Below, one piece after another: positions 1,943-46,940 of a stretch of 64,000 bases of DNA. Under the pieces are notes generated by a model. It had not been told where the DNA came from. It ran no database searches and saw only the letters and a list, made by a program, of their open reading frames with translations. This DNA comes from an uncultured Subdoligranulum sp. (GTDB lineage Bacteria; Bacillota; Clostridia; Oscillospirales; Ruminococcaceae), in the NCBI RefSeq assembly GCF_904374465.1, contig NZ_CAJFFY010000002.1. One strand, 5' to 3'. Every line of letters begins with the position of its first letter. Within the stretch, counting starts at the first letter, position 1. A program made the translations under genes and the position numbers.

Positions 1943-2410
1943 CTATCCGGCGGAAGTAGAGGATTCGTCCATGTTGTTTTTTTCGTCGGCCACCATATCC
2001 ATGTAATCGCGGGCGGCGGCCACCGCCTCGGCGGCGGTATCGCTGACGGAAGCGGGGGAAAATTTTTCAACAAGATTGTCCACATACCGCATGATGGCGG
2101 CCCGGTCGGATTCGGACAATTCCAAAAACGCAGCCAGAGCGGACTGTTCGCGTGCGGTCAATTTGTATTCGTCGGCCAGCCGGGAGAGGATGGAGGACTG
2201 GTCCTGATCGAACATGTCCCCATCGCCGGTGCGAAGCCAAGTTTCGTTGACGTTGAACTCACGGCAGATAGAAAGAATTGTCTGCTCAGACGCACCAGAC
2301 AATCCGCGCTCAATTTTGCTTAGCCCAGAACTGGTAATACCAATGCGAGAACTGAAGGAATCAAGCGTAAGGTGCAAATGCTTCCGTACGATTTTAATGC
2401 GCTCATTCAT
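1943..2410 (-). CDS. XRE-family HTH repressor (cI-like)
   Basis: MNERIKIVRKHLHLTLDSFSSRIGITSSGLSKIERG fits an HTH_3 pattern. Divergent from the rightward early operon and adjacent to the integrase module. Confidence 0.85.
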   Translation of the reverse strand: MNERIKIVRKHLHLTLDSFSSRIGITSSGLSKIERGLSGASEQTILSICREFNVNETWLRTGDGDMFDQDQSSILSRLADEYKLTAREQSALAAFLELSESDRAAIMRYVDNLVEKFSPASVSDTAAEAVAAARDYMDMVADEKNNMDESSTSAG

Positions 2411-2482
2411 TATGTTCACCACCTTTCTGATAATAGAATATCACAAAAAATGTAGTAAGTCAAATTATTTTGAAAAAATACG

Positions 2483-2511
2483 TTGACAAAATGGAGTAAG
2501 TACGCTATAAT
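2483..2511 (+). promoter_or_regulatory. Consensus sigma-70-type rightward early promoter
   Basis: TTGACA (2483-2488), 17 nt, TATAAT (2506-2511), 70 nt upstream of CDS 2581. Operator-like words: GTAGTAAGTCAA (2452-2463), CTGACTAC (2529-2536), TTGACTAC (2555-2562). Confidence 0.7.
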
Positions 2512-2898: not shown

Positions 2899-3157
2899 AT
2901 GTAAAGGTACAGCAGAAAGGGGCGTGGTACGCATGGACAGGGAAGAAGTATTTGCCCACTATGGCAAAACATGCCCGAAAGAAAACGGGTTCGGCTACGG
3001 GTTATGGCCGAGAGAAAAAGCGATGGAAAATCTGAAAGAGCTGCCAGAATTTCTACCGTACCTCAACCCAAAGAAGAAAATCCGAATCACATTTGACTAT
3101 GACCCGGATTTCCCGTTCGCACTGTTTACAACCGAAAACCTGAGAGAGGACGACTAG
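2885..3157 (+). CDS. Hypothetical early phage protein
   Basis: ORF 2885..3157; an alternative start at 2933 (MDREEVF) is possible. Confidence 0.5.
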   Translation: MNVLECKGTAERGVVRMDREEVFAHYGKTCPKENGFGYGLWPREKAMENLKELPEFLPYLNPKKKIRITFDYDPDFPFALFTTENLREDD

Positions 3158-3363
3158 TTGCCCAGCTTTGTGCAGCGGCAGCCGGGCGGGATGATGCCAA
3201 GGGATAAAACATCCTCTTTTTTATCCCATAGGAACTCGACGCCAACAAGGCCGGAAGAACTGTACTGCGGGAACGATTCCCATGCATAACGGTGGATGTT
3301 TTCGCAGACGGAGATACGCTGTTCGACCGGTAGTGAAGTGAGATCGACTGAATAGAACGGCAC
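3154..3363 (-). CDS. Hypothetical small protein (69 aa, GTG start)
   Basis: C-terminal part of track ORF 3154..4185. GGGAGG RBS 8 nt before GTG at 3363; sequence VPFYSVDLTSLPVEQRISVCENIHRYAWESF looks protein-like. The upstream part of that ORF is rejected. Confidence 0.4.
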   Translation of the reverse strand: MPFYSVDLTSLPVEQRISVCENIHRYAWESFPQYSSSGLVGVEFLWDKKEDVLSLGIIPPGCRCTKLGN

Positions 3364-3459
3364 AAAATTCACCTCCCTCCTATTGGAAATAGCGGCCGGA
3401 CGGGGCCACTGATTCCAGTATAACAGAGAGAAAGAGGAAACAAAAGGAGAAGTACAGCA

Positions 3460-3615
3460 ATGAGCAAGAAAGAACAGGATGCGCGCTGGATGGCGGAGCA
3501 GCTGGAAAAGCTGCCGGAGACAGCTCAGGAGCATGTTCGCGGCGTAATCGTAGGGGTGAAACTTGCGACAGAGGAACGTCAGAAGCAGAAAGAAGATGCC
3601 CGCGAGGGCGCCTGA
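3460..3615 (+). CDS. Hypothetical small protein (51 aa)
   Basis: AAAAGGAG RBS then ATG 3460; MSKKEQDARWMAEQLEKLPETAQEHVRGVIVGVKLATEERQKQKEDAREGA. Below the track length cutoff. Confidence 0.5.
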   Translation: MSKKEQDARWMAEQLEKLPETAQEHVRGVIVGVKLATEERQKQKEDAREGA

Positions 3616-3645
3616 TATACCGCCCGGCGGATGCCGGGCACCCTT

Positions 3646-3721
3646 GCCGGCGAAGCACAAATGGCTGTGCAGCTGATTTGTAATCAGAAGGCTACGGGTT
3701 CGAGGCCCGCCGCCGGCTCCA
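3646..3721 (+). tRNA. tRNA-Thr (anticodon TGT), phage-encoded
   Basis: 76 nt with canonical numbering. Acceptor GCCGGCG/CGCCGGC, D stem GCAC/GTGC with G18G19, anticodon loop TTTGTAA, T loop TTCGAGG, encoded CCA. Atypical A8 and mismatches at 27:43 (G.A) and 49:65 (A.C). Confidence 0.8.
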
Positions 3722-3724
3722 TAT

Positions 3725-3799
3725 GCGAGGGTCGTATAACGGCTAGTACACCAGCCTTCCAAGCTGGGAGCGGGGGTTCGATTCCCCTTCCTCGCTCCA
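3725..3799 (+). tRNA. tRNA-Gly (anticodon TCC), phage-encoded
   Basis: 75 nt. Acceptor GCGAGGG/TCCTCGC, anticodon stem CCAGC/GCTGG with loop CTTCCAA, T arm GGGGG-TTCGATT-CCCCT, discriminator T, encoded CCA. Confidence 0.9.
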
Positions 3800-4280
3800 T
3801 GGTAAACCTGGATGCCAAAGAAAACCTGCTTCGACAGGGAAGTGAACGGTTGAGCCGGACACACCAGGATAGAGCGTGACAGGTGGAAACGCTCACCGTC
3901 CTTGCCCCAACCAAGCACCGGGACGGCCCTGCAATGTGAGGCGATTGCCCAAACGTTCGGGGGTATGAGCCTCGTCCATGTTCCCTGTCTGGCCTGGGTG
4001 AGTGGCCAGAACCGCCGCGGGTGAAGCGGGACCCGGCCCTGACATTCGTCCGCGTGGGTGCCCCAAAATGCCCACCAGGCCGGGATATAAGGGGAACGCG
4101 CCCGCGCGAGGACGCGGACCCCGTGGGGTGATGGCCGCCGCGCAGCCATAATCAAACCTCCTGTTTTTGCATTTTTCTCCTTCACAGTTTTTCACGAAGC
4201 AGCGCGGCGGCCTTTATATGGTGCAAGGGCAAGGCGATACAACGTACCGTCGCCCGGTTCAACTCCGGGATGCGCCACCA
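3800..4280 (+). ncRNA. Candidate large structured noncoding RNA, ending in a tRNA-like T-arm/acceptor/CCA module
   Basis: 495-nt gap with no credible ORF. It is dense in local and nested GC helices (coordinates in findings), sits directly 3' of two tRNAs, and has a 61-nt tRNA-like module at 4220-4280. Confidence 0.5.
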
Positions 4281-4294
4281 GAAAGGAAAAGACA

Positions 4295-4537
4295 ATGGAC
4301 AAGGTATTGGGACCACAGATCACGGTTGACGATGCCGTGAAAATCCTGCGGAAGAACGGATTCAAAACCAGCGTGGACAAGCTGCGCGCCGGTCTTGTGC
4401 AGGGAATCTACCCGTTCGGGGATGTGGTGCAGCGGTGTGACGGACTGATCAAGAACGATTGCTACGACGTGTACACCCTGCAGTTGAAAAAGTGGATTGA
4501 AGAAAGGACGGGAAGCAACAATGTGTTGGGCATGTGA
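4295..4537 (+). CDS. Hypothetical small phage protein (possible DNA-binding)
   Basis: ORF with GAAAGGAAAAG RBS. Function not recognised. Confidence 0.6.
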   Translation: MDKVLGPQITVDDAVKILRKNGFKTSVDKLRAGLVQGIYPFGDVVQRCDGLIKNDCYDVYTLQLKKWIEERTGSNNVLGM

Positions 4538-4772
4538 AGCGGCACTGGCCGCGCTGAAAGCTGCCGCACTGTGCGGTTTGCTGCTGGCTGTGATGGCGGT
4601 GGACGCCGGAGCACAGAACGCCCCCGGCGGGATGCTGTACACGGCGGCGTGGCTGGTGGGAATTACACTGGCAGAAAACGCCCTGCTGGGGTGGATGGAA
4701 AAAGTGAAGAAAGCACAAGCCGCGCAGTTGGCGCGGCAGAAAGGAAGGACACTTGCAGAACAGATCAACTGA
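4521..4772 (+). CDS. Small membrane protein
   Basis: MCWACEAALAALKAAALCGLLLAVMAV plus a second hydrophobic segment; overlaps the upstream stop. Confidence 0.5.
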   Translation: MCWACEAALAALKAAALCGLLLAVMAVDAGAQNAPGGMLYTAAWLVGITLAENALLGWMEKVKKAQAAQLARQKGRTLAEQIN

Positions 4773-11195: not shown

Positions 11196-11552
11196 ATGAA
11201 ACCTGAAGGCGACTACGTGGCGAAATCGGAAGATGTCCAAAGCTTCTTTGCGTGGACGGGATTGAAGGTGATAACTACTTATTCGCTAGGACGATGGGTA
11301 CAGAAACGACGGCACAAGAAGAAGCGCATCAATAAAAAATGGTTGAAGCGGTTCGGGATGGTCAATGTATCAAACGGTTTCTTCACGCTTATAGACGAAA
11401 CCAATGGCGTAATGTACGTCCACCCGGACAACTGGGAAAAAATAGTTAAAGCGATGCAGGAAAGAGAAAAGCGGCTGGGCATAAGCCCGTACGAAACGGG
11501 CGGGGCTCCCGGGGGAACAACCGGAGGGAAAAGTCAATGCTGGATGAAGTGA
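11196..11552 (+). CDS. Hypothetical basic phage protein
   Basis: GAGGAGGG RBS; contains KRRHKKKRINKKW. Confidence 0.55.
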   Translation: MKPEGDYVAKSEDVQSFFAWTGLKVITTYSLGRWVQKRRHKKKRINKKWLKRFGMVNVSNGFFTLIDETNGVMYVHPDNWEKIVKAMQEREKRLGISPYETGGAPGGTTGGKSQCWMK

Positions 11553-12376
11553 ACGAAACAATCATGTACCTGGATATGTGTGATCTGGACCAGATCGCAG
11601 AAAGCGGACAATGCTTCCGCTGGATGCCGTGCCGTGAAGGAGGATACCTCGTGCACGATGGCGCAGACCAGGCGTACATAAAGCAGATCGGGACTGTACT
11701 GGTGGTGCGGTACGCGGGCAACACGTTGGCCAAGTGGTTCCGATACCTGGATGCCGGAACGGATTACAGGCACATCCTGGAAAGCATTCCCGACGACGAC
11801 AAGTATCTGCGCGCCGCTGCTGATCGGGGGTGCGGGCTGCGGATTCTCAGAGCGGACCTGTGGGAAACCATGGTTTCTTTCATCATTTCCCAGAACAACA
11901 ACATCCCCCGTATCAAAGCGAGCATCTATGCGCTGTGCCGCAAGCTGGGGAAGCCCCGGCGGTCATTGTTGGGAGAAGTGGGAAAAGACCTGGGGAAAGA
12001 TTTCTATTTCACATTCCCCACCCCGGCGGATATGGCCGATCTGGATGCGCTGCAGGGGCTGGGACTGGGGTACCGGGATAAGTACCTGGCCGAACTGGCG
12101 CGGGATGTAATGCTGGGACGATTCCGGCCGGACAAGCTGCAGGATATGTCCACCGATGAGGCCCACCGTTATCTGAAAAGCGTGCGGGGAATCGGGGACA
12201 AGGTGGCCAACTGCATTTTGCTGTTTGGCCTGGGTCGGCATGATGCGTTCCCGGTGGACACCTGGATGAAGAAGATCATCGACCGGGAGTACGGCGGGAA
12301 GTTCCCACTGGAACGATACAGCGGAACTGCAGGAGTAATTCAGCAGTATATGTTTTACGCAGAAAGGACTCGGTGA
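11537..12376 (+). CDS. HhH-GPD DNA glycosylase, 8-oxoguanine glycosylase (Ogg)-like
   Basis: SGQCFRW N-terminal motif; LWETMVSFIISQNNNIPRI; HhH segment LKSVRGIGDKVANCILLFG followed by AFPVDTW (catalytic Asp region). Confidence 0.75.
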   Translation: MLDEVNETIMYLDMCDLDQIAESGQCFRWMPCREGGYLVHDGADQAYIKQIGTVLVVRYAGNTLAKWFRYLDAGTDYRHILESIPDDDKYLRAAADRGCGLRILRADLWETMVSFIISQNNNIPRIKASIYALCRKLGKPRRSLLGEVGKDLGKDFYFTFPTPADMADLDALQGLGLGYRDKYLAELARDVMLGRFRPDKLQDMSTDEAHRYLKSVRGIGDKVANCILLFGLGRHDAFPVDTWMKKIIDREYGGKFPLERYSGTAGVIQQYMFYAERTR

Positions 12377-13087: not shown

Positions 13088-13978
13088 ATGAAACAGAAAA
13101 CCTACATCCGAGAACAGAAAACCGTATGCGGAAAAGAATACATGGAGGTAGACCTTTTCCGAGTGACAGAAGCGGAACACAAGGCATCCCGCCGAGCCAA
13201 AAAAGAAAAGGCAAGCAGCATTGCCATGCAGAACTGCAACGAGCGATACTCCCGGCGTTATCTCAACCAGCTTGTGGCCACAAATTTCAGCCGAGAAGAA
13301 GGGGCGATGGTGCTGCACCTGACCTACGAGGACGGCTATCTGCCGGGTACCTGGGAAGAAGCAGGACGGGACCTGTCGAATTTCGTGAGGAAGATCAACC
13401 GACGGTGCAAGAAAAAGGGGCTGCCAAAGGCCAAGTGGATAGGTGTCACGGAACACCAAGACAAAAAGCTGACGGAAAACGTGAAAGAAGTGCGGTTCCA
13501 TCATCACATGATTTTGCAGTGCGGGTTGGGTCTGGACGAAATCAAAGACAGCTGGAGCACTGGGCGCGGATTGTGGCAGGAGCCATTGGGCCTAATCACA
13601 GCCGACCGGGCCGAGTTCAAACACGGGACGTTGGACGCCTTCTGCCAGTACATAACCAAGTACCCCCGGCGGAAACGCCGGTGGCGCCAGAGCCAGGGAC
13701 TAAAAAAGCCGGAACGGCCGGTGCCGAACGACACAAGGTACAGCCCCCGGAAATTGGACCAGGTAGCGCGGGAGAGAATCGATGATCGCGAGTTCTGGGA
13801 AAGTCGGTACGGGAAACAGAAGCGCTGGGACGGAGAGCGGGAATACCGGTTCGTGGAAGCGGAAGCCAGGTATAACGACGTAGCCGGGACATGGCACGTT
13901 ACGGCGAAGTTTTGGGCAGACCCCCGGCGGCAGCCCGGAAAGCGGAAAGGCAAAAAGGGGGCAGATGCGTGTCGGTGA
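13088..13978 (+). CDS. HUH-superfamily rolling-circle Rep-like protein (phiX174 gpA / P2 gpA type)
   Basis: HUH-type motif VRFHHHMIL and a two-tyrosine motif FCQYITKY (YxxKY). Confidence 0.55.
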   Translation: MKQKTYIREQKTVCGKEYMEVDLFRVTEAEHKASRRAKKEKASSIAMQNCNERYSRRYLNQLVATNFSREEGAMVLHLTYEDGYLPGTWEEAGRDLSNFVRKINRRCKKKGLPKAKWIGVTEHQDKKLTENVKEVRFHHHMILQCGLGLDEIKDSWSTGRGLWQEPLGLITADRAEFKHGTLDAFCQYITKYPRRKRRWRQSQGLKKPERPVPNDTRYSPRKLDQVARERIDDREFWESRYGKQKRWDGEREYRFVEAEARYNDVAGTWHVTAKFWADPRRQPGKRKGKKGADACR

Positions 13979-16283: not shown

Positions 16284-16313
16284 GCGGAAATCTCCTTTCG
16301 TTTTGTGCTATCT

Positions 16314-16362
16314 GGCTGGGGTCGGGTCGCTTTGTTTCCGGTGCGGCCCGCGAAGGTGTCCG
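16314..16362 (-). repeat. Intergenic repeat family A, copy 1
   Basis: GGCTGGGGTCGGGTCGCTTTGTTTCCGGTGCGGCCCGCGAAGGTGTCCG; near-identical to the copies at 17682-17730 and 17961-18009. Confidence 0.9.
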
Positions 16363-16395
16363 GGCGTCATTTTCGTGGGGTCACGAAATTGGTTG

Positions 16396-17415
16396 TTATT
16401 CAAGGCCCAACGCTCGGCGGGCGGCGCGCTCGGCGTTGTCTGTCAACTGCCGTTGCCATGCGTTGTTACGGGGCGACCAGCGGAAACCGTTGGATTTGAG
16501 GGCGGAGCGGGTGGCCTCGTCGGGCTTGCCGTCGAAAATGATTTGCAGACGGTTTTGCTCGGCGTTGCGAACGATCTGAAAGCCGTCATGCTCCTCGGCC
16601 GGCACCGGGGTGGACTGTTGAGCTTGCAGCCTGTCCAGTTCTTCAATGCGGGCCTGTACTCGCTTGATCTTGCCGCGTAGGCTGGCAAGCTCAAAATCAG
16701 GCATGGGGCGCTGCGCAAAGGCCGGGGCGCTGGCAATGGCCGCATCGTTGCGGGCGGCGGCTTCGTCGCTCATGCCGGGAAAGCCGCGGAGGGTCTTGTG
16801 CTTACGATACCAGGCATTCATGGCTTTGCCTTCGTCAAGCTGGTGTTGCAGGCGGTGGAGTTGGTCGCCCAGCATTTCGCGTGCGTAGGGGTCGGTCAGA
16901 TCGACGGGGCCCGTGCCAACGCTCTTGATTTTGTACAGAATGGCCTCGATGTCCTTGTACTCGGCCCACAGGCTGTCCTCGCGGGCGTTTTGCCGGGCCT
17001 TTTTGCGTACTGGGAAATTACCGGCACCGCACACCAAAACGCTGGGGCAGCTCGCCCCGTTGCGGTTGTAGTCGTTTGTCCACTGGGCCAGGCGGCGGGC
17101 GTACCGGTCCAGCAGCGTGTCCAGCTTGTTGTGGTAGTAAGGGCTGGTGGCTGCTTTGCGACGCTCGACCAAAGCAGAAGCCTTGTCAACGGCAGCCCGA
17201 TATTCGGCGGTAGCACTGCCGGCCTCATAATCAGACATCGACATCATATCGTGTGCCCGGCGGGCGGTGTTTTCGTCGATGGGGTAATAGAATCCCCCAG
17301 CCGCTTTTTGGGGCGAAGCCTCGGCGGGCTGCTCGGTTATCGGCTGGGCGACCGGCTTGTTGTCTGCGCCCGGGGCGGCTGCGATGTCATCAAAAAGGCT
17401 CATTTGTTCGCGCAT
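16396..17415 (-). CDS. DUF3560-like protein typical of conjugative elements
   Basis: C-terminal QIIFDGKPDEATRSALKSNGFRWSPRNNAWQRQL pattern; AAGGAGG RBS. Confidence 0.55.
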   Translation of the reverse strand: MREQMSLFDDIAAAPGADNKPVAQPITEQPAEASPQKAAGGFYYPIDENTARRAHDMMSMSDYEAGSATAEYRAAVDKASALVERRKAATSPYYHNKLDTLLDRYARRLAQWTNDYNRNGASCPSVLVCGAGNFPVRKKARQNAREDSLWAEYKDIEAILYKIKSVGTGPVDLTDPYAREMLGDQLHRLQHQLDEGKAMNAWYRKHKTLRGFPGMSDEAAARNDAAIASAPAFAQRPMPDFELASLRGKIKRVQARIEELDRLQAQQSTPVPAEEHDGFQIVRNAEQNRLQIIFDGKPDEATRSALKSNGFRWSPRNNAWQRQLTDNAERAARRALGLE

Positions 17416-17444
17416 GGTGTTTCCTCCTTGCTGTGTGGTGTGGC

Positions 17445-17606
17445 TTACAGGTTGAGAAGCAGACGGGCCTTGTCGTCGTCAACGAAGTTTGACCATCCGG
17501 CCTCGTGAAGCTCCTCGGCGGCCTGGTGGAGCGTAAGCACGCCGGATTTCACATCGTCGCGCAAGCTCTCTAAAATGCCCTTGATTGGGAGCGGGTCTTT
17601 GCACAT
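17445..17606 (-). CDS. Hypothetical small protein (53 aa)
   Basis: Internal start MCKDPLPIKG of track ORF 17445..17771, after AAAGGA. Confidence 0.45.
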   Translation of the reverse strand: MCKDPLPIKGILESLRDDVKSGVLTLHQAAEELHEAGWSNFVDDDKARLLLNL

Positions 17607-17639
17607 GGTATCAGATCCTTTCTGTGTTTTGGGTTGTGG

Positions 17640-17730
17640 CCCATGAGCGCCCCGCCTTGATGGAGCGGGGCCGGCCTTGTGGGCTGGGGTCGGGTCGCTT
17701 TGTTTCCGGCGCGGCCCGCGAAGGTGTCCG
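17640..17730 (-). repeat. Composite intergenic repeat: family-B-like hairpin fused to family A copy 2
   Basis: CCCATGAGCGCCCCGCCTTGATGGAGCGGGGCCGGCCTTGTGG followed by the family A unit. Confidence 0.85.
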
Positions 17731-17748
17731 GCGGATTGTGGTGCAGGG

Positions 17749-17907
17749 TCAAAGCATGGCCCAGTAAACATTCAGGGCCTTTTGTATCCAGTGCAGGGGA
17801 GCCATGCGCTGTTCCAGGTCTTGCGCAATCTTGCGGACATCCTCGGCGGTTTTGGCAGCACCCAGTGCGGCGTCAACGGCAGATTCGTTCTCGTAATAAG
17901 TCACCAT
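17749..17907 (-). CDS. Hypothetical small protein (52 aa)
   Basis: GAAAGGAGAAC RBS; MVTYYENESAVDAALGAAKTAEDVRKIAQDLEQRMAPLHWIQKALNVYWAML. Confidence 0.5.
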   Translation of the reverse strand: MVTYYENESAVDAALGAAKTAEDVRKIAQDLEQRMAPLHWIQKALNVYWAML

Positions 17908-17952
17908 GAAAAGTTCTCCTTTCTAAGCTGCTTTGTTATGTAGATTCGGCCC

Positions 17953-18009
17953 TCCTTGTGGGCTGGGGTCGGGTCGCTTTGTTTCCGGTGCGGCCCGCGA
18001 AGGTGTCCG
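17953..18009 (-). repeat. Intergenic repeat family A, copy 3
   Basis: CCTTGTGGGCTGGGGTCGGG...GAAGGTGTCCG, ending 5 nt from the stop of the upstream gene. Confidence 0.9.
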
Positions 18010-18014
18010 ATATA

Positions 18015-18578
18015 TTATAATTTCCAGTTTTTTGTGGCGGGGAGTTGGTCGCCGTCGGGAAATGCTGCGCCGTGAAATGTGCCGTTATGATCGACACCCT
18101 CCCAGCGGTCGAGATACAAAAGGGCTTTGTCGTTGGCCTCTTGTTCGGTGAGGCGGTAAACACGAGTCAGCTTGAGCCATCCACCGGGCCATGCGTAGGT
18201 TTGACCCTTGCGGGCGGTTTGCTTAGTAAGGGACGGCAATTTGTCAAGCATCCGCTGGCGTGCGGCGCGGTATTCTGCTGTTGCCTTGTTCTGTGCGATG
18301 GCAGCAGAGAGGCGGAAGATCAAGCCAGGGTCGTCTGTGACAAGCCGGAAGGCATGGGAGAAGGTGAGAAAGTTCCCGAAAATGATTGTGCATCCGGCGT
18401 ATTTGGCGGCCGCTTCATCGGATAGCCATTCCGGAGACGGGTTGACGAAATTCCCGTAAAGCTCAAAAACGGGGTCGAGGGTGTAGCATTCCAGATCGTG
18501 CAGAATGTTTTCCTCGGTGTCAGAGATAAAAGACCACGGCGCGGCGGGATTGGTGACGTGATTTAGATATTCTGTCAT
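18015..18578 (-). CDS. Hypothetical protein (187 aa)
   Basis: Start MTEYLNHV after GGAGG; the rest of track ORF 18015..18734 is 5' UTR. Confidence 0.6.
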   Translation of the reverse strand: MTEYLNHVTNPAAPWSFISDTEENILHDLECYTLDPVFELYGNFVNPSPEWLSDEAAAKYAGCTIIFGNFLTFSHAFRLVTDDPGLIFRLSAAIAQNKATAEYRAARQRMLDKLPSLTKQTARKGQTYAWPGGWLKLTRVYRLTEQEANDKALLYLDRWEGVDHNGTFHGAAFPDGDQLPATKNWKL

Positions 18579-18613
18579 GGTGAAAACCTCCGGTTTATGT
18601 TTTGGGGCTGTAA

Positions 18614-18697
18614 CCCTTGAGCGCCCGCCCCGGTGTGGAGCGGCTGGGCTTGCACCAGCGGCGGCGGCTGCCGTCGGCCTTGCGGGCGTTGTTATGC
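18614..18697 (-). repeat. Intergenic repeat family B, copy 2
   Basis: 84 nt, aligns end to end with 19698-19780; includes the last Ala codon and TAA of the upstream gene. Confidence 0.85.
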
Positions 18698-19642
18698 GCA
18701 GCGGATGTAGTAGGCGGAGCGCTTGGCGGACCATTTGCCGCCAGCCTTTTCAATGGCGGCTTTGTTGTGCTCCACGTCACCGGACAGCCAAACGATGGGG
18801 ATGCTTGTCTGGGCGCCCTTGATCGTGGCGGTGATACCAGCCAGCGCGGAAAACTTCTTGGCCAGGTCCTGGGCGGCCGCGGCCGGGGAACTGTTCGACT
18901 TGGCCGAACAGTTGGCGGCGGGCTTGGCCTGCTGCTCGGCAGCTACCCGGGCGGCGTGTTCGTCCTGCAACTGACGGCGAAGCCGGCGCGCGTCCTCTTC
19001 CAGCTGGGCCTGCTCCTGTTGTGCGGCGTTGAGCGCGGCGCGCAGGTTTTTGACTTCCTGGCTCTCAACTACTTCGGGGGCGTCTGAAAACCAGGCGCGG
19101 ACGGCCCGAAGATGGGCGGCGCAGCGGGGAGAATCGGCATTGAAGTTGATCGGAAGCACAAACCCGACAGGGGACTTCTCGAAAATCGCCAGTGCGCCGG
19201 CGGTTTTGTGCGCGGAAATGAAGATACAATCGCTGAAAACGCTTGTGTATTCCTGGTCATAGGATTCCAGACCGTCGCCGTTGGGGTTGTGGTAGAACTC
19301 TACAAGACGGCGGGCACCCTTGTCCTGCAACACCAAGGGGCAAGGCTCCAAAATGCCGCCGTTGGTGTTCTCGCTGACGATGCGGGAAAACAGCGCGGCA
19401 ATGTCCAGCGGCTTGCAGTCTTGTTCATCGCCGTTGCGATAAAAATAATCCGATGGGGCGCGGTGTGTGACGGGGGAGACGTGGTTGTTGTACTGCTCTG
19501 CCGTGAGGATAACGGCCAGATGGTCAGTGGCGGCATAAATAACGCCGCTTTTGACGTTCACGGCCAGCTTCCCGTGTTTGAACGACGCACGGAAAACTTT
19601 CGTGAGGGACGCGGTAAAGGGCTGGGGAATGATTTTTTTCAT
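18692..19642 (-). CDS. Hypothetical protein with coiled-coil and conserved C-terminal module
   Basis: Start MKKIIPQPF after CAGGAGG; C-terminal WLSGDVEHNKAAIEKAGGKWSAKRSAYYIR. Confidence 0.6.
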   Translation of the reverse strand: MKKIIPQPFTASLTKVFRASFKHGKLAVNVKSGVIYAATDHLAVILTAEQYNNHVSPVTHRAPSDYFYRNGDEQDCKPLDIAALFSRIVSENTNGGILEPCPLVLQDKGARRLVEFYHNPNGDGLESYDQEYTSVFSDCIFISAHKTAGALAIFEKSPVGFVLPINFNADSPRCAAHLRAVRAWFSDAPEVVESQEVKNLRAALNAAQQEQAQLEEDARRLRRQLQDEHAARVAAEQQAKPAANCSAKSNSSPAAAAQDLAKKFSALAGITATIKGAQTSIPIVWLSGDVEHNKAAIEKAGGKWSAKRSAYYIRCA

Positions 19643-19670
19643 GTGGGGTGCCTCCTGTTGTGTTGTTGTG

Positions 19671-19690
19671 CCCGGCGGGGTGTTGCCGGG
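19671..19690 (-). repeat. Leader hairpin family C, copy 1
   Basis: CCCGGCGGGGTGTTGCCGGG, just 5' (gene sense) of the RBS of CDS 18692..19642. Confidence 0.8.
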
Positions 19691-19697
19691 ATGGTTA

Positions 19698-19780
19698 CCC
19701 ATGAGCACCCGCCCCGTTGTGGGGCGGCCGGGCTTGCACCGGCGGCGCGTTGTGCGTCGGCCTTGCGGGTGTTGTTATGC
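19698..19780 (-). repeat. Intergenic repeat family B, copy 3
   Basis: 83 nt; contains the CCGCCCC-GTTGT-GGGGCGG hairpin. Confidence 0.85.
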
Positions 19781-43912: not shown

Positions 43913-45010
43913 ATGGCCAATTTTGAATTTTCTGCCCTGGCCCTCAAAGCCGTGGCCCCCAGCAATGATCTGCTCATGGACGACAAAGGTATGCCCAGCT
44001 GCATGGTTTTTGTCCCCAAATTCAAGCTGTCCGATGTGCTTTCCACGGACGACGACAGTACCCACCCGGCGTTCATCGTGAACGGAACGGAGCGCCCTGG
44101 ATTCTGGATTGGAAAATTCCAGAGCAAGAGCATTAACGGCCGGCCCTATGCACTGCCCTGCGAGGATCCCACGGCAAGTATGAACCTCGATACTTTTGTG
44201 GCGCAGGCTCGCGCAAAAGGCACGGGATGGCATGAAGTCACGGCTGCCGAGTGGGCTGCACTGGCGCTGTGGTGCCACAGAAACGGGTGTGAACCGAAGG
44301 GCAACAACAACTACGGAAAGGACGTATCCGAAAGCACCTACAAAGCTATCCCGACGTTCTACGACACAGGCGCTGGTGGAAAGATCGGGCGCGTGGCTAC
44401 CGGTTCCGGGCCGATCAGTTGGAGCCATGACGGCACGCTGGCCGGAATCTGGGACCTTAACGGCAACGTTTGGGAGTGGTGCACGGGAATCCGCCTTGTC
44501 AATGGCGAAGTGCAGGTTATTGACAAGAACAATGCCTGCGACAACGCCACGGACTTGAGTGCCACCAGCGGGGCATGGAAGGCCATCAAAGCGAGCGACG
44601 GCACCCTGGTTACGCCCAACGGCAGCGGCACCACCTCCGGCACAGTGAAGCTGGACTACGTTTCTGGAAAGTGGCAGTACAACACCACTATTTCTAGCCA
44701 GGAGGACAGCAGCCGCAGCTGCTCCTTCAAGGACATCACCTGCGCAGAGGGCGTGGGAGCCGCCGCAAAGCTGCTCCTGCAGAGCCTGGCTATGATGCCC
44801 GACACCGATCTGACCGGAGAAGGCATCGACGCTACATACGGCGGCGACACGTTCTGGGTGAACAACGCCCAGGCGGAGCGGTGCCTGTGTCGTGGCGGCT
44901 ACTGGAGCCACGGCGGCAGTGCCGGTGTGTTCGACGCGAACCTCCACCACCCGCGGTCCGACGTCAGCGCGGCCGTCGGCGGGCGCGTCGCTTTTATCGA
45001 AAACCCGTAA
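43913..45010 (+). CDS. DGR target: FGE-sulfatase / C-type-lectin-fold receptor-binding (tail fibre) protein
   Basis: GNVWEWC motif; the C-terminal 39 codons are the VR; AAGGAGG RBS. Confidence 0.85.
   Translation: MANFEFSALALKAVAPSNDLLMDDKGMPSCMVFVPKFKLSDVLSTDDDSTHPAFIVNGTERPGFWIGKFQSKSINGRPYALPCEDPTASMNLDTFVAQARAKGTGWHEVTAAEWAALALWCHRNGCEPKGNNNYGKDVSESTYKAIPTFYDTGAGGKIGRVATGSGPISWSHDGTLAGIWDLNGNVWEWCTGIRLVNGEVQVIDKNNACDNATDLSATSGAWKAIKASDGTLVTPNGSGTTSGTVKLDYVSGKWQYNTTISSQEDSSRSCSFKDITCAEGVGAAAKLLLQSLAMMPDTDLTGEGIDATYGGDTFWVNNAQAERCLCRGGYWSHGGSAGVFDANLHHPRSDVSAAVGGRVAFIENP
44877..44994 (+). repeat. DGR variable repeat (VR)
   Basis: 104/118 identity to the TR; all 14 differences lie opposite TR adenines. 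Confidence 0.9.
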
Positions 45011-45116
45011 GCTGCCAGGCTGCAAAGCTGGACGGCTGCGCGGTAGCGCGGCCGCTTAAATAACGCGGACGGGAAACCTGCGCCGCACTGACGCCGCACC
45101 AAGGAGGGAATGAAAG

Positions 45117-45500
45117 ATGGCGAACGATGTGCCGCCCCAGGAGGGGCCAAAGCCGTTCTACCTGCGCGAAAAGATTGGCGAAATGGTGAAATATGGATAC
45201 CCGCTCACCATGAGATTCAGCAGAAAGGACCGCGAACTGGCCGACCAGTTGCGCGTTAGTATGCTGACGGTCTACCGTCTGAGCGTGGAGATCGACAAAA
45301 AATACTACAAGAAAACGACAGTCCAAAACCTGGACGTGGAGCTTGCTGTCCTACGACAGCTGGTACAAATGGCGGCGGATAAAGACTTTTACGGCGGGAA
45401 GCATCCGCCGCCGCTGACAATCCAACAGTATGAGGTTTGGGCAAGATTCAATAATGAAATCGGGCGGTTGCTGGGCGGATATATCAAGAGCCTGGCATAG
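45117..45500 (+). CDS. avd: DGR accessory variability determinant (Avd, four-helix-bundle type)
   Basis: 127 aa, basic and helical, placed between VR and TR. Confidence 0.75.
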   Translation: MANDVPPQEGPKPFYLREKIGEMVKYGYPLTMRFSRKDRELADQLRVSMLTVYRLSVEIDKKYYKKTTVQNLDVELAVLRQLVQMAADKDFYGGKHPPPLTIQQYEVWARFNNEIGRLLGGYIKSLA

Positions 45501-45526
45501 TCCTTTTTCTATGGGAGCAAGCCGAT

Positions 45527-45644
45527 AACGGTGCCTGTATCGTGGCGGCAACTGGAACAACGGCGGCAGTGCCGGTGTGTTCAACGCGAACCTCAACAAC
45601 CCGCGGTCCAACGTCAACACGAACATCGGCGGGCGCGTCGCTTT
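45527..45644 (+). repeat. DGR template repeat (TR)
   Basis: Noncoding copy of the VR, rich in AAC in the VR frame; 26 adenines, 14 of them changed in the VR. Confidence 0.9.
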
Positions 45645-45812
45645 GCTCCCCGGCCTTTTGGCGGAACCCCGCGCCTGATATGTGGGCCGCGCCCTACGGG
45701 GAGCGGTCGGTGCGAAGGGGATCAAAGGGGCTTGTTTCCATTCCGGGCAGACAACCCGGAAAAAATGTGAATTGCCGCGAAGGCGGGAACGCCACGCGCG
45801 GCGGGTAGTAGA

Positions 45813-46940
45813 ATGAAGAAAATACCTGAAGGAAGTTTTGCTACGATCAGTAGCTTTGGATGGATGCTTGCTGCACATCGAAATGCGAGGAAGGGAAAGC
45901 GGTACCGGGGCGATGTATTACGGTTCTCGGCAGAGCTGGAAAAGAATCTGCTTTCGCTGCAAGAAGAACTGCGCAGCGGAACATATAAGACCGGAGAATA
46001 CCGAAGAATTTGGGTAAGCGTACCAAAACGCCGCCTGGTAATGGCACTGCCTTACCGCGACCGGGTTGTGCAATGGTGCATCTACTTGCTCCTAAATCCA
46101 TACTTTGACAAGCGCTTTATCGAAGATAGCTATGCTTGCCGCGTGGGAAAAGGGAGCCACAAGGCCGTTGAACGCCTTCAATACTGGCTGCGGCAGATAA
46201 ACCGTCGGCCAGAAACTGGGTGGTACTACCTAAAACTGGACATCTCAAAGTATTTCTATCGAATCGACCATAAAGTGCTGCTGGAAATCCTCCAACGGCA
46301 CATAGAGGACCGGCAGCTGATGGAACTGCTGCGCGGAATTATCTGCAACCCTAAAGAGCCATTTGGCCTTCCCGCCGGAAAGAAACCGGATGAAGTAAAG
46401 AAGGACGAATGGCTCTATGACGTGGGAATCCCTATTGGGAATCTGTCAAGCCAGCTGTGCGCGAACATCGTGCTGAATGAACTTGACCAATATGCGAAGC
46501 ACAAAATGCACATTCATTACTACATCCGGTATATGGATGATGTGTTGGTACTGGGGCCGGATAAAAGCACTTTGAAACGGTGGAAAGCTGAGATAGAAAC
46601 CTTCTTGCACGATAGGCTAAAACTGGAACTAAACCGGAAAACAACAATACGTCCTATAAGCATGGGTATGGAATTTGTGGGATACCGGGTTTGGGCAACG
46701 CATATCGAGATGCGAAAATCTACCACGCGCCGAATCAAGAGAGAGGTCCGTGCTATTTCCAGAAAAACGGCAAATGGAGAAATGGGCAGGGAGGATTTTG
46801 CCAGGAGAAAGGCAAGCATCGAGGGGCTGCTCAAACACGCGAATACTGCATCCCTCCGGTGGAGGCTCAACAAAATTTACACAAGAGAGATGGCCAAGAC
46901 CAAGGAGAAACACGATGTCGAAAGCGACGATCATTGGTGA
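45813..46940 (+). CDS. DGR reverse transcriptase
   Basis: 375 aa with RT motifs, including IRYMDDVLVLG (YMDD). Confidence 0.9.
   Translation: MKKIPEGSFATISSFGWMLAAHRNARKGKRYRGDVLRFSAELEKNLLSLQEELRSGTYKTGEYRRIWVSVPKRRLVMALPYRDRVVQWCIYLLLNPYFDKRFIEDSYACRVGKGSHKAVERLQYWLRQINRRPETGWYYLKLDISKYFYRIDHKVLLEILQRHIEDRQLMELLRGIICNPKEPFGLPAGKKPDEVKKDEWLYDVGIPIGNLSSQLCANIVLNELDQYAKHKMHIHYYIRYMDDVLVLGPDKSTLKRWKAEIETFLHDRLKLELNRKTTIRPISMGMEFVGYRVWATHIEMRKSTTRRIKREVRAISRKTANGEMGREDFARRKASIEGLLKHANTASLRWRLNKIYTREMAKTKEKHDVESDDHW

Follow-up and report, generated by a model that had tools for sequence, protein, structure and literature searches.

On comparative sequence evidence, positions 3800-4280 on the plus strand of the 64,000-nucleotide stretch of DNA analysed here (the window) encode a conserved non-coding RNA that is highly structured and whose family is absent from Rfam 15. 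The region is 481 nt long, contains 17 helices including one pseudoknot, and has three parts: a variable yet structured 5′ domain (3800-3973), a conserved core of many helices (3983-4212) and a terminal tRNA-like element (4220-4280) with an encoded ACCA. The explanation that we favour, with a probability of about 0.6, is that this is a large phage RNA of a new class, probably excised from an early transcript by RNase P at a tRNA mimic. All features described below lie on the plus strand unless otherwise stated.

The comparison of homologous prophage regions that the initial annotation had recommended as a check revealed conservation and covariation and no conserved open reading frame, on either strand, in 3800-4280; Pfam and PHROG searches of the neighbourhood gave no signal. 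Close relatives differ within the region by indels of 1, 2, 5 and approximately 190 nt, and these frameshifting indels rule out an ORF. The 343-amino-acid antisense ORF that had been seen to run through both upstream tRNAs does exist (3154-4185), and we considered and rejected an antisense protein: the ORF is not conserved, being only 76 amino acids in L011, indels of 1 nt fall six codons past its putative start, and the conserved module lies in different frames in the window and in L009. The antisense ORFs of different clades likewise read the most conserved DNA in different frames. Gene callers routinely place spurious antisense "proteins" of 76-343 amino acids over the RNA, because its CCUCCUG motif looks like a perfect ribosome binding site on the opposite strand, a point of practical relevance to annotation.

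Relatives were collected from four prophage clades (ENA/Logan gut assemblies) together with three IMG/VR contigs (L043-L045), and the RNA family occurs in several gut and environmental phages. The three divergent IMG/VR contigs have in common a CCCUG-P2-P3 module and the terminal tRNA-like element. None of them has a tRNA gene within 10-15 kb, so that adjacency to tRNAs, part of the context to which the initial annotation pointed, is not defining. Subdoligranulum-type members were absent from IMG/VR in pattern scans, and an exact 27-mer and the first module patterns had no match in IMG/VR or in GTDB genomes; the sole match of those patterns in JGI metagenomes (L022) lies within a coding region and was discarded as chance. 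These early patterns were too strict for L040, L032 and the IMG/VR variants, and absence from the genome and metagenome collections is thus weak evidence. An acceptor-based pattern scan returned real tRNAs only, the matches of the loosest pattern were attributed to chance in high-GC coding DNA, and in a BLAST search of the region against phage GenBank entries only the tRNAs matched.

The single-sequence folding energy of the region is unexceptional, and the support for the structure is comparative. The minimum free energy is -194.5 kcal/mol against -189.1±6.0 for shuffles, 18 of 100 of which are equally good, and the minus strand is similar (z = -0.78); the dense packing of helices that had been read from the single sequence therefore does not exceed chance there (z = -0.90), but it does when relatives are compared. 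In a hand-curated alignment of 16 rows from four prophage clades, 104 pairs fall in the 17 helices, 98.4% of cells are paired, and 30 pairs have changed in a compensatory way on both sides, whereas shuffles give 10.4±2.3 and none of 500 attains 30, it being understood that curation to fit the structure biases the pair counts upward and that the rows are mostly close relatives, so that the covariation represents few independent lineages. Counted separately, the 3′ core alone has double changes in 19 of 72 pairs against 6.5±2.0 expected, and sliding its pairing by 1-3 columns as a control left 1-4. Over the whole structure in the four-clade alignment G·U cells number 70 and A·C cells 15, an excess of G·U that places the RNA on the plus strand, and wobble intermediates are present in L014, L028, L032 and L040. 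The frameshifting indels, the covariation and this G·U excess together bear out the proposal in the initial annotation of a large, many-helix, non-coding RNA on this strand. An argument from higher conservation than the flanks as a sign of selection was dropped, because the 100% identity of L001-L008 belongs to a mosaic block (3508-4648) that also covers the downstream 80-amino-acid gene, and because the core identity between the window and L009 (63%) is similar to that of the flanking genes (57-73%).

The 5′ domain opens with hairpin P0′ (3800-04/3813-17), which is UGGUA/UGCCA, UGGCG/CGCCA or AUGCG/CGCAU in three clades. Its loop CCUGG pairs with CCAGG to form P0 (3807-11/3864-68; CCUGG/CCAGG or UCUGG/CCAGA), and the two constitute an H-type pseudoknot. 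P0 encloses P0.1 (3825-28/3835-38; CCUG/CAGG or CCGC/GCGG) and a hairpin at 3847-49/3855-57, and in the L012 type the interior of the domain is replaced by other hairpins. Pa (3872-77/3889-94) carries the loop GACAGGUGGAA and varies at pairs 3877:3889 (U-A, C-G or U·G) and 3873:3893 (A-U or G-C). Pb (3896-3902/3920-26) has the loop CCCCAAC, which is retained in L040 on an entirely different stem, and Pc (3938-42/3969-73) is GAGGC/GCCUC, or GGGGC/GCCCC in L009.

The core is closed by the long-range helix P1 (3983-87/4124-28), which bounds a conserved junction (3983..4128) containing the junction sequence AUAUAA. P2 (3988-94/4004-10) presents the invariant loop UGGGUGAGU, and four of its seven positions covary when the IMG/VR relatives are added. 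P3 (4015-18/4026-29) and P4 (4032-38/4078-84) are invariant, as is most of P1, and are thus uninformative either way; P4 encloses P5 (4054-59/4070-75; loop GCCCCAAAAU), in which four pair types are seen at 4059:4070. P6 joins 4091-94, 4097-4100 and 4102-03 to 4110-11, 4113-16 and 4119-22 beneath a GCGCGA hexaloop. P7 (4133-46/4199-4212) spans 14 positions, 13 of them predicted to pair and one an A·A mismatch (GGCCGCCGCGC-A-GC/GC-A-GCGCGGCGGCC); in the L009 type (GGACCGGCCGCC/GGCGGCCGGUCC) compensation is complete at five positions, and in L040 the helix is longer at its base.

The 52-nt, pyrimidine-rich loop of P7 (4147-4198) contains CCUCCUG (4157-4163), UUUUUG (4164-4169) and UUCUCC (4175-4180). 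CCUCCUG is invariant in all aligned rows and in L040. A candidate partner within the window is the CAGGUGG of the Pa loop (six of seven pairs with a U·U mismatch, without covariation), and in the IMG/VR relatives CCUCCUG is predicted to pair with CAGGGGG in an internal helix, which covaries to GCUCCCG/CGGGAGC in L045. Between P7 and the tRNA-like element is a single-stranded A/U linker, UUUAUAU (4213..4219), which would serve as the leader of the element, its final U being position -1; UAUAU is invariant in two alignments and L040 has UUUACAU. Loop motifs of the RNA are invariant across clades whose flanking 51-amino-acid protein is only 31% identical.

With this structure in hand the nine helices listed in the initial annotation, all correct in coordinates and sequence as read, fall into three groups. 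Five show covariation (3807-11/3864-68, 3825-28/3835-38, 3872-77/3889-94, 3989-94/4004-09 and 4054-58/4071-75), two are invariant and so neither supported nor contradicted (4015-18/4026-29 and 4032-38/4078-84), and two are contradicted, with other pairings in their place. Most relatives carry A3933U, which disrupts 3931-35/3944-48, a helix that also competes with the covarying Pc, and G4106A disrupts 4102-06/4113-17, with 4097-4100/4113-16 and 4102-03/4110-11 around the GCGCGA loop providing the better pairing. P0′, P1, P7 and the tRNA-like element had been overlooked. A T-rich run had also been described and is present, with its limits adjusted to 4164-4192.

The tRNA-like element is 61 nt long and is preceded by U(-1). 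It consists of an acceptor stem of 6 bp plus one mismatch (4220-25/4271-76), a connector GGGCAA (4227-32) in which the GG is invariant, a hairpin in the place of the anticodon arm (4233-40/4244-51), G4252 between this hairpin and the T arm, the T arm itself (4253-57/4265-69; CCCGG-UUCAACU-CCGGG), and the discriminator A4277 followed by CCA (4278-80). It therefore has the acceptor stem, the 5-bp T stem with a UUCRANY-type loop, and the discriminator plus CCA of a tRNA, but within the element there is no D stem and no anticodon arm with a 7-nt loop. In the four-clade alignment all three stems covary, those of the acceptor, the hairpin and the T arm: pair 6:67 occurs as A-U, G-C, G·U or U·G, at pair 3:70 10 rows have U·G, 2 have C-G and 1 has U-A (the IMG/VR relatives have G-C or A-U there), and the T stem has two compensatory pairs. 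The loop of the central hairpin is 3 or 9 nt depending on the clade, and in the IMG/VR relatives the terminal element has four arms and (U/A)CCA.

The Rfam tRNA (RF00005) and tmRNA models do not match the element at E≤10, and ARAGORN reports 4201-4280 as a "possible pseudogene" only at relaxed 70% thresholds (-ps70). A covariance model of the element scores 88 bits here and recovers the IMG/VR elements at E = 0.005-0.8 in a search over the collected relatives; real tRNAs in L024 also match this model, at E = 1e-5 to 1e-4. A tRNA with a group I intron was rejected, as ARAGORN, with introns of up to 600 nt allowed, made only a spurious antisense call. A tmRNA or att-site fragment was considered as the element resembles the 3′ end of tmRNA, and was also rejected: the host tmRNA (L011 313-665) has a different 3′ end (…GGGTTCGACTCCCGTCAGCTCCACCA), and the element is 3.3 kb away from the integrase gene. 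Some related prophages are inserted at ssrA, beside smpB.

The surrounding DNA is a prophage, identified by its integrase, repressor, terminase, portal, tape measure and amidase genes, and an ABC transporter in the window is 80% identical to one of a Subdoligranulum sp., in agreement with the earlier assignment to a prophage of a Firmicutes host; the RNA is co-oriented with the phage tRNAs. A perfect sigma-70-type promoter (TTGACA-17-TATAAT, 12/12 match; 2483..2511), from which an HTH_3/HTH_19 repressor gene diverges (1943-2422, minus strand), heads an early lytic operon that contains both tRNAs and the RNA, and no terminator-like site is found on the plus strand from this promoter to 4700. 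The two tRNAs reported just upstream, and the end of the second at 3799, are confirmed by ARAGORN and Rfam (48 and 59 bits) as tRNA-Thr(UGU) (3646-3721) and tRNA-Gly(UCC) (3725-3799), each with an encoded CCA; there is zero spacer between tRNA-Gly and the RNA. The next gene of the operon, which lies outside the RNA, is an 80-amino-acid ORF with the ribosome binding site GAAAGGAAAAG (4283..4537), which starts 14 nt past the CCA and whose product has no Pfam or PHROG match.

Bacterial RNase P recognizes the coaxial stack of acceptor stem and T arm, U(-1), G(+1)-C72, a purine at position 73 and the 3′ CCA, and its substrates other than tRNA include tmRNA, 4.5S RNA, the C4 RNA of phages P1 and P7, and viral tRNA-like structures (PMC11143913). 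Such features are present here and conserved in sequence (UAUAU|GG...A-CCA). In the reading that we favour, the RNA, tRNA-Thr and tRNA-Gly would be transcribed from 2483-2511 within one early lytic operon, and the host tRNA-processing machinery would excise the RNA. From the acceptor/T-arm stack, U(-1), G(+1)-C72, A73 and CCA we infer that RNase P would cut between U4219 and G4220, leaving a large RNA whose 3′ end is the strong P7 helix plus UUUAUAU and freeing the tRNA mimic, either alone or still attached to the downstream mRNA as its 5′ cap. As the 5′ hairpin begins at the first base past the CCA of tRNA-Gly, this tRNA may stay fused to the RNA or be separated there. The excised product would be a stable folded RNA that works in trans early in lytic growth, as proposed for ROOL and GOLLD, and its likely contact surfaces are the conserved single-stranded motifs, namely UGGGUGAGU, the CCCCAA loops, the GCRYGA hexaloops and CCUCCUG.

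Few large structured RNAs (more than 300 nt) are known from bacteria and phages, and the best known of those with unsolved function (OLE, GOLLD, ROOL, HEARO and raiA) each began a line of work. If the RNA described here represents a new class, it would offer a second, independent handle on what large phage RNAs do, by way of a different architecture, with a built-in tRNA mimic and a fixed early-operon place beside the immunity switch as helpful features. The form in the window, lacking approximately 190 nt carried by relatives, is a natural minimal variant, and the prediction of RNase P processing is open to direct test in vitro.

It is possible, although we think it unlikely, that the RNA acts in cis or near-cis as a regulator of the early operon, either as a processive antitermination element, with counterparts in lambda nutR/tR1 and HK022 putR at the equivalent position, or as a C4-like antisense RNA, processed by RNase P, in which CCUCCUG and UUCUCC would be directed at the Shine-Dalgarno regions of early genes downstream. 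The window and the distant L043 share the place between Cro-like/repressor genes and early/replication genes; in L043 the RNA likewise lies between immunity-region HTH genes and replication genes, and the invariant CCUCCUG is an anti-Shine-Dalgarno core. The RNA ends 2-14 nt ahead of a ribosome binding site in the window, L040 and L044, an arrangement that fits a cis-acting leader equally with a trans-acting RNA, and C4 is itself a known RNase P substrate that shares a transcript with its target (PMC11143913). However, there is no terminator-like site downstream within 4700, the next gene varies by clade (in L040 the 80-amino-acid gene is missing and a different small gene follows the RNA), and by eye there is no convincing complementarity to the ribosome binding site of the 80-amino-acid gene. 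The predicted internal helix that holds CCUCCUG in the IMG/VR relatives argues against a free anti-Shine-Dalgarno loop there. At 400-800 nt and 17 helices, moreover, these RNAs are far larger than C4 RNA (77 nt) or the put RNAs (approximately 70 nt).

A doubtful proposal is that of a new class of phage "tRNA-capped" ornate RNA, the mimic of which would be functional and more than a handle for processing: its CCA would be maintained, and it might be aminoacylated or bind EF-Tu or the ribosome, while the invariant, anti-Shine-Dalgarno-like CCUCCUG and the pyrimidine tracts would capture ribosome binding sites of mRNAs or ribosomal components. In early lytic growth such an RNA might sponge or reprogramme the translation of the host, or it might form a multimeric cage like those of ROOL and GOLLD.

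We regard it as very unlikely that the region functions as DNA, as a replication origin or protein-binding region in which the 52-bp A/T-rich stretch in 4133-4212 would be an unwinding element. The P7 arms are perfect complements, without G·U, that flank an A/T-rich segment, and replication genes lie immediately downstream of the region in L043, but 70 G·U against 15 A·C cells and the wobble intermediates in several helices would not result from selection for DNA cruciforms, the T loop, acceptor and CCA are an RNA signature, and the interval has no iterons or direct-repeat family (BLAST of the region against the window gives self only). Just as hard to credit is a decayed phage tRNA array, with the tRNA-like element a pseudogene and the remainder a GC-rich spacer whose helices are driven by composition. 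Phage tRNA clusters often contain degenerate copies, and the ARAGORN call at relaxed settings and a folding energy no better than that of shuffles would suit such decay; against it stand the thirty compensatory pairs, the invariance of loop motifs across clades, the covariation in all three stems of the element, and the retention of the element with its CCA in IMG/VR relatives that lack nearby tRNA genes. Least probable of all is a divergent ROOL or GOLLD beyond the reach of the Rfam models, for which a large, many-helixed RNA beside tRNAs in a Firmicutes prophage, conserved towards its 3′ side and variable towards its 5′ side like GOLLD (PMC12286853), might be cited, but there is no match to RF03087, RF01998 or any other model in the window or the divergent relatives, and no common motif was identified.

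A cmscan of 3550-4400 with all 4227 Rfam 15 families (E≤10, permissive filters) returned only the two tRNAs and noise, with no ROOL, GOLLD, tmRNA, group I intron or RNase P RNA, and at E≤5 neither ROOL, GOLLD nor another family matched in relatives from each of the clades (L009, L032, L014, L026, L040 and L043-45). The ROOL covariance model (RF03087) finds no match, nor does that of GOLLD (RF01998), full or local, including its conserved 3′ half. As nothing in Rfam 15 matches the RNA at E≤10, it is not a member of the ROOL, GOLLD, tmRNA or tRNA families; the suggestion of ROOL or GOLLD in the initial annotation thus falls, and its alternative, something unclassified, survives.

ROOL and GOLLD are large RNAs of phages and prophages, rich in helices and pseudoknots and often located near tRNA islands, that form RNA-only cages of unknown purpose; GOLLD combines a 3′ region that is conserved with a 5′ region that varies, and tRNAs are sometimes covalently linked to it (PMC12286853). 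The RNA described here is of the same kind in its prophage location near tRNAs, its length of several hundred nucleotides, its many helices and its pseudoknot, and it resembles GOLLD in having a conserved 3′ part and a variable 5′ part. It differs from both in its smaller conserved core (approximately 300 nt), in members that always end in a tRNA-like element with CCA and in some cases have no tRNA neighbours, and in its fixed place in the early operon beside the immunity region. A survey of IMG/VR lists 10,006 candidate structured RNAs, many of them unclassified phage RNAs including tRNA-like ones (PMC10690425).

Like tmRNA (RF00023), which is matured by RNase P, this is a large structured RNA with an acceptor/T-arm module and a 3′ CCA. 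Unlike that of tmRNA, the module occupies 61 contiguous nt at the 3′ end and is not made by the 5′ and 3′ ends of the RNA: the acceptor 5′ strand (4220-4225) lies only 45 nt before the 3′ strand, and covariation backs this local pairing. The alanine identity pair G3·U70 is never seen here, ARAGORN finds no tmRNA even at 80% thresholds, and there is no tag reading frame, nor any frame conserved across the indels. In MALAT1/mascRNA and the 3′ tRNA-like structures of plant viruses, a 3′ tRNA mimic serves as a processing signal (for RNase P and the CCA-adding enzyme) or an end-protecting signal; these systems, from eukaryotes or RNA viruses, are unrelated in sequence to the present RNA, and the analogy is mechanistic only. 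The C4 RNA of phages P1 and P7 is 77 nt long and acts via two defined antisense loops; the RNA here is likewise a phage immunity-region RNA with a tRNA-like feature, but is 5-10 times larger. C4 is cut from its operon transcript by RNase P by means of a tRNA-like acceptor feature (PMC11143913).

Window 3800–4280 encodes a conserved, structured, non-coding + strand RNA that ends in a tRNA mimic and lies in an early operon. The window begins inside a prophage integrase gene; in identical contigs the order is host asparaginase, integrase, a 254-aa gene and an HTH_3 repressor (the last three on the minus strand), then a rightward operon. This has a perfect promoter (TTGACA-17-TATAAT, 2483–2511), no terminator-like site is found on the + strand from there up to 4700, and the RNA is part of the predicted early lytic transcript. 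Small ORFs (2581–2898, 2933–3157 and 3460–3615, all +) precede tRNA-Thr (3646–3721, +) and tRNA-Gly (3725–3799, +), and an 80-aa ORF (from 4295, +) follows the RNA. Terminase, portal, tape measure and amidase genes lie farther downstream, and the ABC transporter of the host, at the window's far end, shares 80% identity with its counterpart in a Subdoligranulum sp. genome, which makes the host a gut Oscillospiraceae-like Firmicute. Between the stop codon of a 51-aa ORF and tRNA-Thr lies a GC-rich hairpin with no T tail (GCCCGGC-GGAU-GCCGGGC, 3621–3640), kept in all clades (GCCCGGC-GGGCU-GCCGGGC in the related locus L032), which may have a processing or stabilising role. The tRNA-Thr homologue is weaker in some relatives of the L011 type (L014 4529–4601, Rfam 44.5 bits with no ARAGORN call; also listed, L011 5134–5236) and absent from L012, L018, L026 and L029, which keep tRNA-Gly and the RNA.

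The prophage early region also holds an OGG/HhH-GPD glycosylase-like ORF (11537–12376) and a rolling-circle Rep-like ORF (13088–13978; REP_ORF2-G2P, E = 2.4e-7). An Rfam scan finds a cluster of self-cleaving-ribozyme-type RNAs on the minus strand (16310–19773), where two twister-sister ribozymes (19692–19773, 84 bits; 18608–18690, 73 bits) and three RAGATH-5 motifs (17957–18010, 17678–17731 and 16310–16363) alternate with minus-strand ORFs. A diversity-generating retroelement (44879–46940) comprises a variable repeat (44879–44994), a 116-nt template repeat 89% identical to it (45529–45644), with all mismatches at template adenines, and an RVT_1 reverse transcriptase (45813–46940). In sister prophages (L011 313–665, L013, L014 1–55 and L015) a large serine recombinase replaces the tyrosine integrase and the prophage sits where the host's tmRNA gene (tag peptide DNNYPVAVAA) has its 3' end, beside smpB, unlike the window's prophage, which adjoins the asparaginase gene.

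No Rfam 15 family matches 3800–4280 at gathering thresholds, nor does relaxing the cutoff to E ≤ 10 under permissive filters give one, and single-sequence folding does not go beyond composition (z = −0.90 on the + strand, −0.78 on the minus strand), so that comparison with relatives was needed. Contigs coding for exactly the same 80-aa protein show 100% identity in the RNA interval, which is uninformative as part of a mosaic block (3508–4648). From the 3' half of the 51-aa gene this block runs through both tRNAs, the RNA and the 80-aa gene into the beginning of the gene after it. Its identity is 100% between prophages (compared with L003, L004, L007 and L008) that differ by 2–8% elsewhere; mismatches crowd at both borders (3217–3507 and 4649–4696), and the pattern suggests a module recently exchanged by recombination.

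More divergent relatives were reached through 80-aa proteins of 96% identity (L011 type, L011–L020) or 76% identity (L009 type, L009 and L010), through homologues of the upstream 51-aa protein (L025, L026, L029 and L032) and, for the L040 type, by querying a spurious antisense 'protein' against 1.8 billion representatives, which led through P0011 to L040 and L041. The Subdoligranulum-type prophages fall into four clades, whose lengths here run from where tRNA-Gly ends up to the following start codon: the W type, which holds the window (495 nt); the L011 type (~690 nt), with a ~190-nt insertion carrying a second copy of the module of helices P2 and P3; the L040 type (~520 nt, or 502 nt if counted only up to the CCA), with another downstream gene; and the L009 type (~690–700 nt), whose 5' half is unrelated and which has an additional hairpin of 41–43 nt. 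A looser motif scan of IMG/VR gave three far more distant relatives (L043–L045, 400–450 nt), with no tRNA genes near the RNA.

We aligned 16 distinct sequences in blocks set by hand, splicing the L011 type across its insertion and using the L009 type only at its alignable parts. Counted on this alignment, which is fitted to the structure and whose rows represent about four independent lineages, the 3' core (72 pairs, 98.3% of cells paired by the counting tool) has 19 double-change pairs against 6.5 ± 2.0 in shuffles, and the whole RNA including L040 (a separate count of 104 pairs in 17 helices, 98.4% paired) has 30 against 10.4 ± 2.3, values reached by none of 500 shuffles in either case. Sliding the core structure by 1–3 columns leaves only 1–4 double-change pairs. 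The covariation among related prophages expected of the large ornate RNA that the initial annotation proposed is therefore present. Because of the excess of G·U over A·C cells (70 vs 15) and because of the wobble intermediates (A-U, G-C, G·U or U·G at 4225:4271; U-A, C-G or U·G at 3877:3889), we assign the structure to the + strand RNA. P3, P4 and most of P1 are invariant throughout the alignment. We put the probability of a real structured RNA family at about 0.85.

The RNA opens at the first base past the tRNA-Gly CCA with hairpin P0' (3800–3804/3813–3817), whose loop CCUGG pairs with 3864–3868 in a pseudoknot; both stems covary, and the pseudoknot encloses two small hairpins. Pa (3872–3877/3889–3894), Pb (3896–3902/3920–3926) and Pc (3938–3942/3969–3973) follow, and the Pb loop, CCCCAAC, is retained in L040 on a wholly different stem. 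P1 (3983–3987/4124–4128) closes a core junction of P2, with the invariant loop UGGGUGAGU, P3, P4 enclosing P5 (loop GCCCCAAAAU), an AUAUAA junction, and P6 with the hexaloop GCGCGA. P7 (4133–4146/4199–4212), at five positions of which the L009 type shows full compensation, has a 52-nt loop with UUUUUG, UUCUCC and an invariant CCUCCUG (4157–4163); the linker UUUAUAU then leads to the tRNA-like element (4220–4280). All of the helices in the initial annotation exist in the sequence at the coordinates given there, and two of them (3931–3935/3944–3948 and 4102–4106/4113–4117) are broken by substitutions in relatives and give way to covarying alternatives.

The tRNA-like element has an acceptor stem GGUGCA/UGCGCC with the seventh position mismatched in every case, an invariant GG connector, a hairpin of 6–8 bp, whose loop has 3 or 9 nt depending on the clade, followed by 1–2 linker bases, a T stem of 5 bp carrying the loop UUCAACU (UUCGAAG, UUCAAAG or UUCGAUU in other clades), and A73 with an encoded CCA. 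All three stems are supported by covariation. L043–L045 end in a fuller four-arm version with acceptor GGGCGG/CCGCCC (GGACGG/CCGUCC in L045) and 3' end UCCA or ACCA. A covariance model built from Subdoligranulum-type elements only locates these where expected (E = 0.005, 0.0085 and 0.8), and it picks up true tRNAs of unrelated phage loci as well. From the four-arm versions and these matches, the tRNA mimic is the constant 3' terminus of the family.

L043–L045 share with the window a CCCUG-P2-RCCGCCGC-P3 module, in which P2 has new compensatory stems (GCAGCCC/GGGCUGC and CCGACCC/GGGCCGG). Also shared are a GCAUGA hexaloop hairpin following a CUAUAU junction, a helix with a pyrimidine-rich loop right before the tRNA mimic (CCCGCCG/CGGCGGG or GCCCGGC/GCCGGGC) and the heptamer CCUCCUG, which in these contigs stands at the 5' end, predicted to pair with CAGGGGG (GCUCCCG/CGGGAGC in L045). 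Their RNAs have no Rfam match. Since their domains follow one another in a permuted order compared with the window, resembling the L011-type insertion, the RNA looks as if it were built from reusable modules. Its place in the genome plan is the same in L043 as in the window: integrase, HTH repressor and then divergent HTH_3 and Cro-like genes lie upstream, and a tiny membrane protein, an HTH_36 initiator-like protein and DnaB helicase downstream.

Non-tRNA substrates of RNase P include tmRNA, 4.5S RNA and the P1/P7 C4 RNA, and the enzyme recognises an acceptor/T-arm stack, U-1, G+1, R73 and CCA (PMC11143913). By these established rules RNase P would cut at 4219/4220, a processing model that we hold with moderate confidence. 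The cut would leave the large RNA with a protected 3' end (P7 and a U/A tail), and the tRNA mimic would be freed or kept as the structured 5' end of the downstream message. The tRNA-Gly, with zero spacer to the RNA, may or may not stay attached; some GOLLD RNAs are reported to carry linked tRNAs (PMC12286853). More speculatively, the released RNA could act in trans via the invariant loops. Chief among the rivals is control of the downstream early genes in cis or near-cis, by antitermination or C4-like masking of a ribosome binding site, a reading to which the position of the RNA and its anti-Shine-Dalgarno-like motif lend some plausibility.

The 3' element is neither a tmRNA domain, given its local pairing without G3·U70 or a tag frame, nor a decoding tRNA, as it lacks a D stem, a 7-nt anticodon loop and an RF00005 match. 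ARAGORN recognises it only when thresholds are lowered to 70%.

The interval is non-coding. Close relatives are separated by indels of 1, 2, 5 and ~190 nt, which no + strand reading frame survives, and the earlier view that it holds no credible ORF stands. The antisense ORF noted at the same time exists as an ORF, and a protein from it is ruled out by its unequal lengths (343 aa in the window, 76 aa in L011, 73 aa in L040), by a start codon that differs or is missing clade by clade, and by frames that differ between the W and L009 types in the P2 module, the most conserved DNA. Public gene calls place spurious antisense proteins of 63–343 aa over the RNA and tRNAs (window 3154–4185, minus; relatives likewise), probably because CCUCCUG reads as AGGAGG and then ATG on the minus strand, and these are usable handles for locating homologues of the RNA.

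The initial annotation had allowed for a ROOL or GOLLD member or something unclassified, and it is the second that holds: tests for membership of ROOL, GOLLD, tmRNA and tRNA were all negative. No description of the RNA turned up in the literature searched, a comparison that excludes the candidates listed by a large survey of structured RNAs in viruses (PMC10690425). It belongs to the broader kind of large, ornate, tRNA-associated phage RNAs, and may be likened to ROOL and GOLLD in setting and, by analogy, in mode of action. What is new is a terminal tRNA mimic as the defining feature, together with a fixed position in the early operon.
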